DNA from: Octopus vulgaris
Taxonomy: Eukaryota
DNA: 64,000 nt
Direction: 5' to 3'
NCBI GenBank assembly: GCA_951406725.2
Contig: OX597838.1
Location: forward strand, 30,752,001-30,816,000
The notes under the pieces were generated by a model. The model searched no databases and was not told the origin of the DNA. It saw only the letters and a program-made list of their open reading frames with translations. Of this stretch, positions 3,838-60,358 are shown one piece after another. How positions within the stretch are numbered: the first letter of the stretch is position 1; the number at the start of each line of letters is the position of its first letter. A program made the position numbers and the translations under genes.

Positions 3838-5224
3838 GTCTGTCTGTCTGTCTGTCTCTCAATCTGCCTGTCTGTCTACCTGTCCACTATCTTTTTATAA
3901 GATGGTGGACACATACACACACACACACTCACACGAATATGCATGTACGTGTCTGTGAAGTAGACTCGCAGGAAATTCACAAGGCGCTTTCTAAATCGTC
4001 TTGGGTGTCCAGGTAGATAAAAAGTTAGATGGGGAGGCGCCTGGAGAGTGGCTGGTGTCACTAGAAAAATAGCCTAAGAGGAACCTATTCACGAATGGTC
4101 AGGTATTTGTAGAAATGTCCCGACGGTCCCAAGTTCGCTATAAAATATTGCATAAAAAGAAAAGTAGACTTTGCCACCCTGTATATAGAAAATGTTTGCC
4201 CAGATATTCGTCAGAGCTTTCCTTAACTGGTCCATCTAGGTCACAGAGGAAGTCACTTCATCCATTGTTGCACAAAACTACAGTAGATTACTTTTCTCCT
4301 TGTTCAACCTGTGTAAATTTTCAGACAAGAATATGTAGTCTCTACAAATGTTATTTTCCCACAGCCCTGTCTGGGTACGGCATTCTATCCAGACTTTTAA
4401 AAAAACCCTCGACGTTGGCAAAAATTATGGCAAAATCTGTTACCTACACGTGTACATCATTTCCCGTTCTACAGCGTACGTGTTCGTTTCACTATTATTG
4501 TAATTGTTGCTGCTGTGATAGTTCTACTGGTACTGCTGTCGTTACTGTAATTGCTGTTGTTGTTGTTATTGTAGCAGCCGCAGTTGTCTTCGAACAACTT
4601 CTATACTTCCTCCACCCAACGACTGGTGCGCATTTATATTTTTTTCAATATTTTCTCCGTTTGACAAAAGTATGTACGAGTTGTTGTTGCGATAACTCTT
4701 GTTTATGTCGTAAAAATGTGCGTTTTGGGAAATTAAATTTTTGGTTGTTTATGCTTTCGAATGTATCTGTTTCATTATCATTTTTTTTCTGTTTATTATT
4801 GTTTTTGAAATTGTCTTTCTTGTGTTCTTTCTTTCTTCTAATCCTCTTCGTGTTGCCTAAGCTTATTTCTTACATTTTGTTTTAAAGGAGCGTCTCCATA
4901 GCTACCCCTTCTCTCTTCTTAACATCTCTCACCACTCCTCTCATAGACTAAGAAATTTTGGATGTTGTAAACAAGAAAGTAAAATGAATTCTTGTCTCGA
5001 AGACAGAACTTTGGTCTATCCTAAGTATTGGCACAGACGTCCCAACGGTCTCTAGTCCGTAAAATACTGCAATAAATAAATAAATAAAAATAGAAAATAA
5101 AAACCCAGAAATACTTCCTTCCTCTAAAATCTTGGTAATAATCCAAAATCTATCTACACCGCCGTGAAAGACATTTGCAGACAACGAGACGACGGCGACG
5201 ACGATGGCGACGACGGCGGCGACC

Positions 5225-5456
5225 AGGATAATAACCATTCCTATTATAGTCACAAGGCCTGAAATTTTTTTGGGGAAGGGATTAAGTCGATTCCATTGAC
5301 CCCAGTGCTCGACTAGTGTTTATTTCATCGACCACGAAAGGATGAAAGAGATAAAATCGACCTCGGTAGAATTTGAACTCAGAACGCAAAGACGGACGAA
5401 ATGCTGCCGAAGGATTTCGTCCGGCGGGCTAACGTTTCTGCCATCTCGCCGCCTTC
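5225..5456 (-). mobile_element. SINE family B (tRNA-derived, Meta-domain-like core), diverged copy
   Basis: Matches the family consensus GGCGAGCTGGCAGAA...GAGTTCAAATTCCGCCGAGGTCGAC...CATCCTTTCGGGGTCGATAAA seen in more than 12 copies here. Confidence 0.8.
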
Positions 5457-5474
5457 AAAAAGTCACAAGGGATG

Positions 5475-5549
5475 CGCGTCGGCCGGGAATCGAACTCGGA
5501 TCGACTGTCTAAAAGGCAACAACCATGCTAACCGTTACACCGCCGACGA
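5475..5549 (-). pseudogene. tRNA-Gly(TCC)-derived pseudogene
   Basis: Minus strand reads CGTCGGCGGTGTAACGGTTAGCATGG...GATCCGAGTTCGATTCCCGGCCGACGC, resembling metazoan tRNA-Gly(TCC); the anticodon arm is disrupted. Confidence 0.65.
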
Positions 5550-5599
5550 CGACGACAAACAGCGACAACAACATTAATAAAAAAAATAATAAGTGATGG

Positions 5600-5778
5600 C
5601 CGTGGCTGTGTGGTAAGTAGCTTGTTTACCAACCACATGGTTCCGGGTCCAGTCCCACTGCGTGGCACCTTGGGCAGGTGTCTTCTACTATAGCCTCGGG
5701 CCGACCAAAGCCTTGTGAGTGAATTTGGTAGACGGAAACTGAAAGAAGCCTGTCGTATATATGTATATATATATATAA

Positions 5779-5863
<85 letters not shown>

Positions 5864-6080
5864 TGTGTTTGTGTGTTTGTCCCCCTAGCATTGCTTGACA
5901 ACCGATGCTGGTATATTTATGTCCCCGTTACTTAGCGGTTCGGCAAAAGAGACCGATAGAATAAGTACTGGGCTTACAAAGAATAAGTCCCGGGGTCGAG
6001 TTGCTCGATTAAAGGCGGTGCTCCAGCATGGCCGCAGTCAAATGACTGAAACAAGTAAAAGAGTAAAAGAGTAAAAAGAG
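5600..6080 (+). mobile_element. SINE family A, near full length
   Basis: tRNA-like head (TGGCTGTGTGG, CCGGGT(T/C)CAGTCCC), CACCTTGGGCA core, internal TA/TG microsatellite, 3' tail CCAGCATGGCCGCAGTCAAATGACTGAAACAAG(TAAAAGAG)n; about 15 copies in the window. Confidence 0.9.
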
Positions 6081-6081
6081 A

Positions 6082-6185
6082 GTTGTGATCGGTGCATTAG
6101 GGTCAATGCCATTGAAACTTCAAGACTTCTTAAAACGATGAAAGAGTCACGAAATCGGTCTTGTTATGTGCTGGACACCTTTTAA
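6082..6185 (+). mobile_element. Possible R4/Dong-like LINE C-terminal remnant
   Basis: Translates VVIGALGSMPLKLQDFLK, resembling the V-V-I-G-A-L-G motif found after the RLE domain of R4/Dong elements. Very short. Confidence 0.4.
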
Positions 6186-6194
6186 GGAAAGTAT

Positions 6195-6415
6195 TTATTT
6201 CTTTATTGCCCACAGCGGGCTAAACATAGAGAGGACAAACAAGGAATCAAGTCGATTACATCGACTCCAGTGCGTAACTGGTACTTAATTTATCGACCCC
6301 CGAAAGGATGAAAGCCAAAGTCGGCCTCGGCGGAATTTGAGCTCAGAACGTAGAGGCAGGCAAAATACCTATTTCTCTCGCCCACTAAGCTAACAATTCT
6401 GCCAGTTCGCCGCCC
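6195..6415 (-). mobile_element. SINE family B
   Basis: Match to family B consensus. Confidence 0.85.
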
Positions 6416-6559
6416 TTATTTTAAGGAAGGTAAGTTAAGTCGATTATATCGACAGTGCATAACTGGTACTTATTTATACTCCGGCAATTTCCCATCAACA
6501 CTGCATGAGAAAGTAACAATCCTTTCCCCTGGAAAACAAGACAAACAACATAAAGAACG

Positions 6560-6624
6560 ACCCTTCATCAGTTGTTGGCTATTTTTTCTACTCTCGTATT
6601 TCGAGCATTTAACAACAATGTACG
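6560..6624 (-). ncRNA. Non-circularly permuted hammerhead-like motif, subfamily beta (U16.1C)
   Basis: Minus strand: CGTA-C-A|TTGTTG-ttaaat-GCTC-GAAA-TACG-linker-CAACAA-CTGATGA-A-GGGT. Confidence 0.55.
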
Positions 6625-6865
6625 CTTTCAATAAAACAGTTACTCCCCTACCCGCCACCATCGCATGACAACCGATGTTGGTGTGCTTACGTCCCCGTAA
6701 CTTAGCGGTTCGGCAAAAGACACGGATAGAATAAGTACTAGGCTTACAAAGAATATGCCCTGGGACCGATTTGTTCGCCTAAAGGCGGTGCTCCAGCATG
6801 GCCACAGTCAAAATGACTGAAACCAATGAAAGAATAAAAGAATAATTCCTAACAATATTTAATTA

Positions 6866-6948
<83 letters not shown>

Positions 6949-6958
6949 CTGATGCAGT

Positions 6959-7023
6959 ACCCTTCATCAGTTGTTGGCTATTTTTTCTACTCTCGTATTT
7001 CGAGCATTTAACAACAATGTACG
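6959..7023 (-). ncRNA. Duplicate of the beta permuted hammerhead-like motif
   Basis: Same sequence as 6560-6624. Confidence 0.55.
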
Positions 7024-7267
7024 CTTTCAATAAAACAGTTGCTCCCCTACTCGCCACCATCGCATGACAACTGATGTTGGTGTGCTTACGTCCCCGTAAC
7101 TTAGCGGTTCGGTAAAAGACACGAATAAAATAAGTACTAGGCTTACAAAGAATAAGCCCTGGCGTCGATTTGTTCGACTAAAGGCGGTGCTCCAGCATGA
7201 CCACAGTCAAAATGACTGAAACCAATGAAAGAATAAAAGAATAATTCCTTACAATATTTAATTATGA

Positions 7268-8070
<803 letters not shown>

Positions 8071-12604: not shown

Positions 12605-13036
12605 TGCGCAAGCATGGCTGTGTGGTAAGAAGCTTGCTTCCCAACCACATGATTCCGGTTTCAGTCCCACTGTGTGACACCTTGGACAAGTATCTTCTAC
12701 CAGCCTCGGCCTGACCAAAGCTTTGTGAGTGGATTAATAAAGGGAAATTGAAAGAAGCCCGTCGTATATATATATATATATACGTAGAGTAGATGAAACC
12801 ATGGCGACTGAAGAAGGGTTTTTTTTCCTTGTGTTATTTGTCCTGTACTCTATTTTTTTGTTGTTTAAGGAAAATGTCCAGTTCCTTGGGTTTGTGTCTA
12901 TGTTTTCGTTTCTCATTGTGTTCGACGTTTTTTTTTTTTGGTGTCCTGTACTCATATATGCGTGTATATATACATGTAGAGGTAGGTACGTACATATATG
13001 TATATATATATGCATATGTTTTATTTATTAATATAT

Positions 13037-13074
<38 letters not shown>

Positions 13075-15222: not shown

Positions 15223-15599
15223 GTGTATATATATATATATGGCTTATATGTAACTGTGTATGTGTGTATGTGTGTATGTGTGCATGTGTGTATGTATATG
15301 TGTGTGTGTTTGTGAATGAATGCATGTATATAATCCACCCTTACTTTCCTGAATGTCATCAAGTACGTACCCAAAGACATAAGCAAGAGAATCATTACTT
15401 TATTCTCAAACAAACCACTTTAAAACAGGGCGGTCTGACTAACACAACGCTCCACTGTGAAGGCAGCCATTACAGAAATAAATAAATACATAAATAAATA
15501 AATAAATAAAAATTTAGCACTCACCGATAACAAGTAACAATGGGAGAAGCCTACTTGCAGTTACTCGACGTGTTAAACATAGCAGTCAAATCTACCTAT

Positions 15600-16012
15600 T
15601 TGTTTTATTACCCACAAGGGGCTAAACACAGAGGGGACAAACAAGGACAGACAAACGGATTAAGTCGATTACATCGACCCCAGTGCGTAACTGGTACTTA
15701 ATTTATCGACCCCGAAAGGTTGAAAGGCAAAGTCGACCTCGGCGGAATTTGAACTCAGAACGTACCGGCAGACGAAATACCTATTTCTTTATTACCCACA
15801 AGGGGCTAAACACAGAGGGGACAAACAAGGACAGACATAGGTATTAAGTCGATTACATTGATCCCAGTTCGTAACTGGTACTTAATTTATCGACCCCGAA
15901 AGGATGAAAGGCAAAGTCGACCTCGGCGGAATTTGAACCCAGAAGGTAAAGGCAGACGAAATACCGCTAAGCATTTCGCCCGGCGTGCTAACGGTTCTGC
16001 CAGCTCGCCGCC
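15600..16012 (-). mobile_element. SINE family B tandem dimer
   Basis: Two head-to-tail units of about 180 bp sharing one 5' head. Confidence 0.9.
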
Positions 16013-16694
16013 TTTTAGCAGTCAAATCTACCTGAAATTCCCCCACCCTCACCGTTCCATTCACGCGTACCCTCGTGTCTGAGAAAATGTCACTTCGGAT
16101 AACGTGGTCCGGAGTGTCTCTACCTGTATATAGGGAAACGAAGAGATGGGCACGGATGGAATGTATTTGCTTGCTCGACTGCTGGATCAGAGTTGAACTG
16201 AGGCTAAAACCACGCCAACAACAATGGTTTCAAATTTTTTGCACAAAGCGAGCAGTTTTGGGGAGGGGGAGGGGGGTTAAATCGATTACATCGATCCCAG
16301 TATTTAACTGGTACTAATTTTATCGATCGCGAAGTTAACCTCGGCGGAATTTGAACTCAGAACATAAAGAAGGACGGAACGCCGCTAAGCATTTTGCCCG
16401 TCTGGCGGTGGACGATTCTTTCCAATAACAACAACAAAAACAACAAACAATGGACTACCCTTGTGTAGTTGTTCGATCTGCTAAAAATAGCAGCTAAATT
16501 CTTATCACGACTAAATTTCTCACGACGAATCAGGTGCGTAGTTAAGGAGCCTGATTCACAACCACGTAGCTTCGGTTTCCATCCCTCTGTGCGGCACATT
16601 GGCCAAATGTCTTCTAATACAGCCCCAGCATGACCAACGCCATGTGAGTGAATTTGCTAAACAGAAACTCTAGTGTGTATGTATATATATATAA

Positions 16695-17210
16695 TAAATT
16701 AATAAATAAAATAAAACATATGCATATATACATACATATATGTACGTACCTACCTCTACATGTATATATACATGCATATATGGGTATAGGACACCAAAAA
16801 ACGTCGAACATAATGAGAAACGAAAACAAACACAAAACCAAGGATATGGACATTTTTCTTAAACAAAAAAAAAATAGAGTACAGGACATACAATACAAGG
16901 AAAATTCCCCTTTTCAGTCGCCTCTGTTTCATCTACTCCGCGTTTCGAAGGTCAAGGCGAGACACGACTTCAATAAAACATTCCTTCCCGCAAAAGGTAA
17001 ATTAAATAAAATTTGAGATTTTTTTGCGGAGGGATAAAAATGGTAACAAAGATAGGACAGTAAAGACAGTACAAAATATAAACAGTAAAGGATAGGACAA
17101 GGAGAATAACAGTAACACAAACATTGAGAGTTGTTAAGCCAGAATGAAAGAAAAAATGTTATGAACGCTTTTGAGGACGGCAAGAGAGAGACAAAAAAAT
17201 ATACACATAT
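16695..17210 (-). mobile_element. Alpha unit: non-coding, TA-associated repeat (possible Penelope-like pLTR or non-autonomous retroelement)
   Basis: Homologous to 19795-20260 and 12782-13040; carries the permuted hammerhead-like motif at 16907-16967, whose core is damaged (CTGAAAA). Confidence 0.7.
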
Positions 17211-19753: not shown

Positions 19754-19794
19754 GAACAATCTTACTTAGAAATGGATGCGTGCGTTCAGTCATA

Positions 19795-20260
19795 TATGAA
19801 TAAATAAATAAAACATATGCATATATACATACATACATATATGTACGAACCTACCTCTACATGTATATATACATGCATATATGGGTACAGGACACCAAAA
19901 AAACGTCGAACACAATGAGAAACGAAAACACAAACACAAAACCAAGGAAATGGACATTTTTTTTAAACAACGAAAAAATAGAGTACAGGACATACAAAAC
20001 AAGGAACATTCCCCTTCTTCAGTCGCCTTTGTTTCATCTAATCCACGTTTCGAAGGTGAAGGCGATACATGACTTGAAATGAAATTTTCCTTCCCGCGGA
20101 AATCAAATTAAATAAAATCTGAGATTTTTTTGCGGAGGGGTAAAAATGGTAACAAAAACAGGTCAGTAACGACAGTACAAAATATAAACAGGACAACGGA
20201 GAATAACAGTAACACAAACAAGGAGGGCTGTTAAGCCAAACGAGATAATTTTTTTTTCGA
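19795..20260 (-). mobile_element. Alpha unit
   Basis: Homologous to 16695-17210. Confidence 0.7.
20011..20072 (-). ncRNA. Non-circularly permuted hammerhead-like ribozyme, subfamily alpha, intact core
   Basis: Minus strand: TCATGT-A|TCGCCTT-cac-CTTC-GAAACGTGG-linker-AAGGCGA-CTGAAGA-A-GGGG. Stems III, I and II can all pair. Confidence 0.65.
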
Positions 20261-20269
20261 ACGCTATTC

Positions 20270-20680
20270 TTTGGGATCGGCAGAGCAACAGATTTTACCG
20301 TCCCTATTTATATGTCCTGTACTCTATTTTTTCACTGTCCTGTTTTTCATACCAAATTTGATCTTCCGCAAATCCCAAATTTTCTTTTGGTTCGCGGGAG
20401 CAACTGCCTTTCGAAGCCTCCTATTGTTGTTAATTGCTCGAAATAAGAAGTACATGGACAGCCGACAACTGATGAAGGGTCGTCCTTTATGTTACTTGTC
20501 TTGTTTTCCATTTGCTTCTCTCGTTGTTCGCATACCAAAGTTTGTCTTCGTATTTCATGTTGTTTACGTTTTGTGACGTCCTGTACCCATATATGCATAT
20601 AAATATGCATGTATATGCATGTATGTACATATATGTATATATATATATGCAAGTATATAAATATATATTTTATTTATATT
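20270..20680 (+). mobile_element. Beta unit, back to back with the alpha unit
   Basis: Shares the 3' end GTCCTGTACCCATATATGCAT with alpha; permuted motif at 20417-20480; homologous to 6520-6650. Confidence 0.65.
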
Positions 20681-20681
20681 A

Positions 20682-20729
<48 letters not shown>

Positions 20730-34950: not shown

Positions 34951-35850
34951 CACCAGTTATACTGACGACACAAAAGTATCGCAGGCAGTTAGGAACCCAG
35001 AGGACATCATAGAACTGCAGAAACACCCGAATGAAGTATGTTAGTGGGCTAAAATAACATGCAGTTCAGTGCTATGAAATTTCAGGCCGTCCACTATCGG
35101 TCCAAACACCAGGCTAAAACGGGAATACACTGGACCAGAAGGTAATACGATCCCAGTGTCAGAGTCGGCACGTGACCTGGAGGTTGACATGAGCAATGAT
35201 GCAACATTCCATGTACATATTACCAAGATGGTAACACTGTACAGGCGAGTGGCTGGATGGATTCTGAGGACACTCAGAACCAGGAGAAGTGAGGCCGGGC
35301 TACTTCTATGGAGGACTTTCGTTCCCGGCCGCTTGGGCTACTGCCCCCAACTAAGGTCTCCAAAGAGTGTGAAACAAACTGTGGAACTCGAAGCAACCCA
35401 ACACTAATACACAAAGAAGATTGTCTCGATGCAAAAGATGGTCTACTGGGAGTGGTTAAAGGGGCTGAGTCTGTATTCCCTGGATAGAAGACAAGAGAGA
35501 TATGCGGTGATATATATTTGGAAGATCTTTAAGGGTTTAGCTCCCAATTTTTGGAATTGACAGCTATACCAATCCTTGAACTGGACGGCACTGCATCATA
35601 CCAAAGATCCCCGTCTTCCCCAGCTAAAATAATGACACAGTTCTGCATCCATAGCTCAGTGGTTAGAGCACTGGTCTTGTAAACCAGGGGTCGTGAGTTC
35701 GATCCTCACTGAGGGCTTTTGTTACACATTTTCAGCGGTGGCGCCCCAGCATGGCCGCGGCCTTTGGGCTAAAACATTTTAAGGATTTAAGGATTAAGGA
35801 TAAGGATAGTCTGGGTTTCAAGGGCCTGCAATTGTTCAACATCCTGCCAG
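34951..35850 (+). mobile_element. Decayed CR1/L2-group LINE ORF2 3' fragment (reverse transcriptase C-terminal region)
   Basis: YTDDTK (YADD-like) at 34958, followed by W..NNMQF..KF, RDL.V, L.LYSL.RR.ERY and SLGFKG.QLFNILP, with stops and frameshifts. Confidence 0.88.
35645..35717 (+). tRNA. tRNA-Thr(TGT)-derived sequence, probably a retroposed pseudogene or SINE head
   Basis: D, anticodon (TGT at 35678-35680) and T arms are intact; the acceptor stem has 2 mismatches; TTTT and a SINE-type tail follow. Confidence 0.75.
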
Positions 35851-57570: not shown

Positions 57571-57614
57571 ACACAACGTTTCGGCTGATATACCCTCCAG
57601 CCTTCATCAGGTGT
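57571..57614 (-). ncRNA. Minimal type I hammerhead ribozyme with canonical core
   Basis: ACAC-CTGATGA-A-GGCTG-gagggtatat-CAGCC-GAAAC-GTT-GTGT; loopless palindromic stem III as in Penelope-associated dimeric hammerheads. Confidence 0.75.
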
Positions 57615-57800
57615 CTTGGGGAAATTTCGAACCTGGGTTCTCATTCCTAAGGTATTTTTTGATGTTGTTGTTGTTGTTGTTGTTGTTGTTCTTGTTCTTC
57701 TTGTTCTTCTTGTTCTTCTTGTTCTTCTTGTTCTTCTTGTTCTTGTTCTTCTTCTTCTCCTTCTTCTTCTTCTTCTTCTTCTTCTTCTTCTTCTTCTTCC

Positions 57801-59782: not shown

Positions 59783-60358
59783 ACCTGTTTCTTTACTACC
59801 CACAAGGGGCTAAACACAGAGGTGACAAACAAGGACAGACAAAGGGATTAAGTCGATTACACCAACCCCAGTGCGTAACTGGTACTTGATTTATCGACCC
59901 CGAAAGGATGAAAGGCAAAGTCGACCTCGGCGGAATTTGAACTTAGAACGTAACGCAAACGAAATACCTATTTCTTTACTATCCACAAGGGGCTACACAC
60001 AGAGGGGACAAACAAGGACAGACAAAGGGATTAAGTCGATTACACCGACCCCAGTGCGTAACTGGTACTTGATTTATCGACCCCGAAAGGATGAAAGGCA
60101 AAGTCGACCTCGGCGGAATTTGAACTTAGAACGTAACGCAAACGAAATACCTATTTCTTTACTACCCACAAGGGGCTACACACAGAGGGGACAAACAAGG
60201 ACAGACAAAGGGATTTGCGTAACTGGTACTTGATTTATCGACCCCGAAAGGATGAAAGGCAAAGTCGACCTCGGCAGAATTTGAACTCAGAACGTAACGC
60301 AGACGAAATACGGCTACGCATTTCGCCCGGCGTGCTAACGGTTCGGCCAGCTCGCCTT
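59783..60358 (-). mobile_element. SINE family B tandem trimer
   Basis: Three near-identical head-to-tail units of about 180 bp with one 5' head. Confidence 0.92.

Follow-up and report, generated by a model that had tools for sequence, protein, structure and literature searches.

In the window analysed here, a 64,000-nt stretch of microsatellite-rich animal DNA from Octopus vulgaris, two diverged subfamilies (alpha and beta) of one dispersed repeat carry hammerhead cores whose blocks stand in the rearranged order S-G-C. On our reading, to which we give a probability of roughly two-thirds, both subfamilies had master RNAs that took the fold of type-SGC hammerhead ribozymes and cleaved after H17, and a Penelope-type reverse transcriptase (RT) acting in trans carried them into TA microsatellites, the beta copies present here having since decayed. 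In such a fold, the S strand would pair with both later blocks to form stems I and III, while the G and C blocks would form stem II, so that the standard catalytic core would be assembled as a double pseudoknot.

Alpha and beta align over 421-427 columns at 63-65% identity, that is over about 400 nt, which makes them subfamilies of a single non-coding repeat of about 480 nt (table 1); this repeat is dispersed in high copy, and no meaningful Pfam match was found in the reading frames over its copies. The preliminary description had credited beta with the same strand order and spacing as alpha: the order is indeed the same, but the spacing is only approximately so, since 18 nt separate 16.1 from G12 in beta versus 16 in alpha, and 29-31 nt separate G12 from C3 versus 29. 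The motifs CUGANGA and GAAA are whole in all three beta copies and in the alpha copy a1, and one base is missing in a3. As further observations on the two subfamilies, GAAG before and AGUAG after stem III are kept in both (20413-20416 and 20449-20455 (+), with the corresponding positions of alpha), and could either lengthen stem III by tandem G-A pairs or hide the G block in a hairpin, as an off state. A 27-nt alpha segment (19972-19998 (-)) that lies 3' of the ribozyme has a counterpart of 96% identity within the 5' part of b3 (20308-20333 (+)), which suggests exchange between subfamilies or an internal repeat. The 5' parts of a1 (-) and b3 (+), about 60 nt apart, are weakly homologous (20180-20345; 65% over 51 nt, E 0.018), and this pair may be an inverted pair of two subfamilies in the style of Penelope-like elements (PLEs) or the product of a later neighbouring insertion.

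Table 1. Coordinates of the beta and alpha copies and of their parts in the window.
Feature	Positions	Strand	Details
Beta fragment around b1	6530..6647	-	118 nt, both ends cut; G-run joins the 3' part of the SINE-like repeat
Beta core b1, SGC hammerhead-like	6560..6624	-	14/15 stem pairs; U16.1C lesion
b1 S block	6624-6613	-	16.1 = C at 6620; A17 at 6619
b1 G block	6606-6595	-	GAAA 6602-6599
b1 C block	6577-6560	-	CUGAUGA 6571-6565; unpaired A 6564
SINE-like abundant repeat fused to b1	6648..6845	-	Outside the beta family; 14 matches in the window, including 2 here
Beta copy b2, duplicate of b1	6959..7046	-	Core 7023-6959; ends right after stem II; in tandem duplication 6560-7347
Alpha copy a2	12782..13040	+	5'-truncated, between TA repeats; C block only (12808)
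Alpha element a3	16694..17172	-	Between TA repeats; core 16967-16907, G-U-C, 15/15 pairs; CUGANGA-A one base short
Alpha element a1	19792..20268	-	About 480 nt, head-to-head with b3; SGC core 20072-20011 intact: 15/15 pairs, G-U-A, CUGAAGA
b3 whole element	20295..20690	+	About 400 nt; T-rich 3' part, TA microsatellite at end
b3 core	20417..20480	+	U16.1 20422 and A17 20423 intact; GAAA 20440-20443; CUGAUGA 20469-20475

When reread from the sequence, the three beta cores lie where they had first been placed, each with its blocks ordered S-G-C, and the pairings described for them stand: stem I joins UUGUUG to CAACAA or CGACAA, stem II joins GCUC to GGGU after one unpaired A, and stem III joins CGUA to UACG at 6.6 and 7.0 kb. 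From 6624 to 6560 on the minus strand, b1 reads CGUA, C, A and UUGUUG, then GCUC-GAAA-UACG, and finally CAACAA-CUGAUGA-A-GGGU. These three cores are however not three independent copies, as initially counted, because b1 and b2 arose by one tandem duplication of 399 nt (95% identity, 98% over the core), so that the window contains two independent beta insertions. The U16.1C lesion attributed to these copies is real (C at 6620 and at 7019), which means that the S block of the 6560-6624 and 6959-7023 copies carries C16.1 where type SGC has U16.1-H17; changes at 15.1 or 16.1 are reported to slow hammerheads at least 10-fold (PMC3088659). In b3, the lesion had been sought at the cleavage strand, as an apparent loss of 2 nt, yet nothing is deleted: measured between motif anchors, 16.1 and G12 stand 18 nt apart in each of the three beta copies, and the cleavage triplet at 20421-20423 reads C-U-A, so U16.1-A17 is present, and none of the 4 indels listed for four sequencing runs falls in beta. 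It is stem III that is damaged in this copy, and by three mismatches relative to the family majority (from 20421, 20445, and 20448) rather than by two, with 3 of its 5 pairs broken and 12 of the 15 stem pairs formed overall. The earlier suspicion that the beta copies may be dead was in this respect probably well founded, albeit with a misplaced lesion at 20.4 kb, and all three have probably decayed and lost activity.

The beta motif is real and above chance. A descriptor covering all six block orders returned, when U16.1 was required, two matches in the window, namely the alpha SGC core at 20022 and a weak GCS reading at 20469, and, when any base was admitted at 16.1, four, namely SGC cores at 6571, 6970, and 20022 together with the weaker GCS reading at 20469; b3 was not picked up as SGC. 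In 1733 local dinucleotide shuffles, SGC matches arose at 0.001 per shuffled window under the strict version, 0.004 under the relaxed one, and 0.001 at the stem lengths of b1. Motif scans of other collections gave 15 chance matches in viral_contigs, with stems absent by eye and none with the exact motif, no match in either scan of metagenome_contigs, and one match in genome_contigs, a bacterial sequence from which the other blocks are absent. Among the 150 of 569 Rfam matches listed for the window, no hammerhead family appears, and the sole match at gathering score is a tRNA gene (anticodon UGU, 35645-35717 (+), 61.6 bits). Elsewhere in the window, at 57585-57615 (-), lies a minimal type I hammerhead of canonical order and of the PLE dimer kind, in which CUGAUGA and an unpaired A are combined with a stem II of 5 bp and a palindromic stem III of a single bp, and which is likewise absent from the 150 Rfam matches listed; circular and non-circular hammerheads therefore coexist in the window.

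The family beyond the window was viewed through sequencing contigs. The stretch or part of it is contained in 20 of 24 runs (13 studies, six organisms), and contigs matching 19985-20590 at 80% likeness were collected from 4 of the 24, one run for each of four organisms, with 3972-7061 contigs per run. In all four runs, the majority letter differs from b3 at four stem positions, 20421 (A, 90-95%), 20428 (C, 69-85%), 20445 (G, 86-91%), and 20448 (G, 91-94%), and each of these four differences restores or strengthens a pair; further majority differences, at 20453, 20456, and 20484, lie outside the stems. The resulting beta majority has CCUCA/UGAGG as stem III, UUGUCG/CGACAA as stem I, and A-U-A as triplet, so that 15 of 15 stem pairs are formed and U16.1-A17 is kept. 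The consensus proposed as a check on the beta motif accordingly brings back U16.1-A17 along with every stem pair, although it does so only for the subgroup near the 20.4-kb copy: S-block depth amounts to 1.4-3.2% of C-block depth, and the majority hence describes only the subgroup within 80% of b3. Within it, minor variants include C>A at 20417 (22-32%), which breaks the outermost stem III pair, and C>T at 20418 (4-33%), which leaves a wobble. Loose ends at 20458 reveal a second abundant subgroup, b1-like on its G side and with its S block outside the view, and we infer that C16.1 is private to b1 rather than shared by this b1-like subgroup. Summed C-block depth exceeds that of single contigs by a factor of about 10^4, a figure that is not a copy number and is read only as "very abundant." In run X5, beta reaches a depth of 329,158 versus 18-228 for the alpha core, and beta, being deep where the alpha core is nearly absent, is thus no minor offshoot of alpha. 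Alpha too has subgroups, since in three runs three neighbouring positions of its stem I show variants (20-33%) that resemble a2 (20023-20030, 12800-12807), the changes on the partner strand being absent from the substitutions listed.

The GCS reading returned by the descriptor at 20469 would have b3 use a downstream cleavage strand, with U-C at 20499-20500, and make it a type GCS hammerhead. We consider this extremely improbable: its stems are shorter and richer in G-U pairs, it is absent from b1 and from alpha, GCS is the commonest chance order in the shuffles (0.005-0.014 per window), and it is the SGC stems that the family majority makes perfect.

That pairing is retained under wholesale sequence change, which had been taken as a sign of selection on RNA structure, is borne out for the master element. 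Pairs were counted over 15 stem positions from motif anchors, because a MAFFT alignment misplaced stem III. Between a1 or a3 and the beta majority, 6 pairs are unchanged, 3 are changed on one side, 6 on both sides, and 0 are broken, and the neutral chance that all changed pairs stay paired ranges from 2e-4 to 6e-3 under transition biases of 1-4, in a test that compares two lineages and whose stems and lengths were picked after inspection of the data. When the comparison is confined to the window (a1 against b1; 14 pairs once the sixth stem III position, which is broken, is set aside), 7 pairs are changed on both sides and 0 are broken, with a similar P. Selection on the RNA structure of the master element is supported by these sequence comparisons. 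Alternatively, beta could be an old branch that decayed neutrally, with seeming compensation produced by CpG decay and by choice of register. Consistent with this, double CpG decay can account for the difference of b1 from the family at stem I pair 5, a comparison of b1 with the beta majority by itself does not reach significance (P 0.08-0.15), and nested folding scores are flat (see below). Of the 6 two-sided alpha-beta changes, only one (stem I pair 2) involves CpG on both strands and could be decay. Neutral divergence nonetheless seems very unlikely to us, as it accounts poorly for two-sided changes of transversion type that leave 15 of 15 pairs formed between alpha and beta (P at most 0.006), for a family majority that repairs all four stem differences of b3, and for an SGC rate near 0.001 in shuffles. 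The change at b1 stem I pair 5, a seeming compensation internal to beta, has CpG on both strands and could likewise be decay.

If structure was selected, it may still be asked whether cleavage was. The family might have stopped cleaving, or never have cleaved well, the pseudoknot being instead a signal that lets the mobilising RT recognise the RNA or that keeps the RNA stable. Such a signal would fit the damage seen in all 3 beta and in 2 of the 3 alpha copies of the window, the weakness of stem II, the competing hairpins predicted below, and the reported proliferation of Naiads devoid of canonical hammerheads (PMC8557442). On the other hand, among the 40 of 85 substitutions listed for the family, no variant at U-A (20422-20423) and no majority change in CUGANGA or GAAA appears for beta, and both subfamilies keep their catalytic letters while their stems turn over, as catalysis would require. 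We accordingly regard a purely structural role as unlikely, and favour a master RNA that was cut, the predicted site of self-cleavage in beta lying after A17.

How such an RNA would fold is less straightforward. Stem II is weak, with two G-U pairs in 4 bp and a duplex energy of -1.5 kcal/mol in beta and 0.0 in alpha; stems II of 2 bp are reported to occur naturally (PMC3088659). Nested folding, in which pseudoknots are not representable, gave z-scores of -0.5 to +1.0, no better than shuffles, and predicted competing hairpins, in b1 and a3, that would tie up the G block. An auxiliary helix between stems I and II was sought by pairing the 5' flank or the linker with the strand after stem II, and in none of 8 tests did it beat shuffles (shuffle fractions 0.06-0.92). 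A GGAC/GUCC helix in b3 was likewise rejected, since it needs two private letters that are missing from the family.

Stem I is the strongest helix, and it is the one that appears in the nested folds of b1 and a1. The active unit could be a dimer, in which a single RNA provides both strands of stem I while a second copy contributes the G block (S1-C1-G2), in a nested, type-III-like junction that dispenses with pseudoknots. This arrangement, in line with the mode proposed for metazoan PLE hammerheads, some of which need two copies (PMC4209133), would make sense of a strong stem I, of a weak stem II, and of the auxiliary helix that was not found. Stem III is however 4-5 bp and non-palindromic here, unlike that of dimer-type PLE hammerheads, SGC RNAs of only 77-81 nt cleave co-transcriptionally (PMC10085705), and the copies in the window are dispersed, their sole tandem being a later duplication; a dimer thus appears rather unlikely to us, if slightly less so than a fold retained as a mere signal, and the pseudoknotted monomer remains our preferred reading.

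With regard to mobilisation, the repeat is likely a non-autonomous PLE, judging from its insertion sites and the state of its copies: a2 and a3 lie between TA repeats, b3 ends in TA, a2 is truncated at its 5' end, and a1 and b3 stand head-to-head. Microsatellite flanks of this kind, 5' truncation, and an inverted neighbour match the behaviour of PLEs and are counted here in favour of that assignment. On the other side, neither an RT nor a GIY-YIG endonuclease was found by Pfam in 118 of 145 selected frames of the window. Under the preferred reading, self-cleavage would trim the RNA of the element out of a host transcript or a tandem read-through transcript, as has been proposed for the hammerheads of PLE pseudo-LTRs (PMC4209133), and the downstream piece, about 250-270 nt with the G and C blocks and a T-rich tail, would then be copied in trans by a Penelope-type RT/endonuclease into TA microsatellites. 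Decay after insertion would have brought U16.1C to b1 and b2, stem III mismatches to b3, and losses of CpG. A non-LTR retrozyme was also envisaged; animal non-LTR retrozymes are described as tandem and of type I (PMC7229834; bioRxiv 10.64898/2026.07.22.740005), and this candidate was rejected because the copies are dispersed and of SGC order, and because the 399-nt tandem includes an unrelated SINE-like repeat. Head-to-tail copies (184 nt) of a short repeat that is common in the window occur at 15593-15965 and 59826-60230.

Taken more broadly, these observations lead us to the tentative proposal, whose chances we see as slightly below even, that Octopus-type genomes may contain thousands of pseudoknotted type-SGC hammerheads, in at least two to three old retroelement subfamilies as well as in the tails of autonomous Naiads. 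Were this true, an animal genome would for the first time have yielded a type-SGC ribozyme, and the reported "absence" of hammerheads from Naiads would in part be explained by search descriptors built on circular order. The present repeat also suggests that ribozymes in animal repeats, and in some PLEs described as devoid of them, are undercounted by standard type I/II/III descriptors. The beta subfamily matters here for its covariation, through which the alpha motif is no longer one isolated pattern but a structure that has been conserved, and diverged high-copy subfamilies would amount to thousands of dated copies in sequenced genomes on which the origin, the structural tolerances, and the function of the rearranged fold become directly testable.

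Among autonomous elements, the closest likeness that we noted is with Naiads. In the portions consulted of Craig et al. 2021, these elements are described as inserting into TA repeats and as devoid of canonical hammerheads, with, in eight cases, the halves of a core separated by 35-50 nt (PMC8557442). Among the 18 Naiad 3' ends, out of 54, that were inspected by eye in File S5, two show the S-G-C order, those of Naiad_Obim and Naiad_Ovul, the latter flagged there only as "HHR_half_core." By eye, both have a G-U-A triplet, a 6-bp stem I, a 4-bp stem III, G-C and G-U at the base of stem II, and a preference for TA, in likeness to the present repeat, with spacings of 15 and 27 nt versus 16-18 and 29-31 nt in alpha and beta; they differ in being autonomous and coding, in a stem II of only 2 bp, and in the letters of their stems. 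This likeness is one seen by eye and says nothing on kinship with the present repeat. The idea that all Naiad half-cores are SGC was rejected, the other six of the 7 half-core families viewed (of 8) being of circular order or unclear. To the eye, the 3' ends of Naiad_Esco, Naiad_Parc, Naiad-3_Nbra, Naiad_Hpol, and Naiad_Smim resemble circular-order hammerheads with long loops rather than ribozyme-less tails, and the bivalve ends viewed show no hammerhead core. Short-motif look-ups in the sections examined of the Naiad/Hydra consensus file (PMC8557442) gave no matching context for the alpha and beta motifs.

Type SGC itself was described in 2023 by Eckert et al. from metatranscriptomes and, according to the sections consulted of that paper, from none of the genomes of known organisms (PMC10085705); our literature search, whose coverage took in few subscription journals, likewise returned no report of a type-SGC hammerhead in an animal genome. 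The 77-81 nt RNAs of that study cleave during transcription, its SGC ribozymes have rates of 0.007-0.19 per minute, SGC-3, the sole example dissected, requires a helix between stems I and II, and the evolution of the non-circular permutation is left open (PMC10085705). Compared with the motif HRIMA-1 and with the SGC variants reported there, the present repeat has the same block order, all core bases, and three stems, and alpha shares the short S-G linker (3 nt); it differs in being a high-copy animal nuclear repeat with an unpaired base before stem II and, for beta, in an S-G linker of 6 nt and no clear I-II helix. As far as sequence can tell, the beta family displays the testable features of type SGC, the auxiliary helix excepted.

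The hammerheads of PLE pseudo-LTRs offer the other point of comparison. They have an unpaired base before stem II, occur at distances of 100-700 bp on opposite strands and may serve to process the RNA of the element, and those of metazoans are proposed to act as dimers and to cleave slowly (PMC4209133). Like those described by Cervera and de la Pena 2014, the repeat analysed here is non-coding and a few hundred nt long, has one unpaired base on the 5' side of stem II, and shows microsatellite flanks and opposite-strand neighbours, the a1 and b3 cores being about 450 bp apart (PMC4209133). PLE pseudo-LTR hammerheads are however of type I, a circular permutation, and often tandem and of the dimer type, whereas the copies in the window are dispersed monomers of SGC order (PMC4209133). 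The rearranged topology is in itself an already published type, and what would be new, to judge from the literature search, is its setting in a probable animal retroelement.
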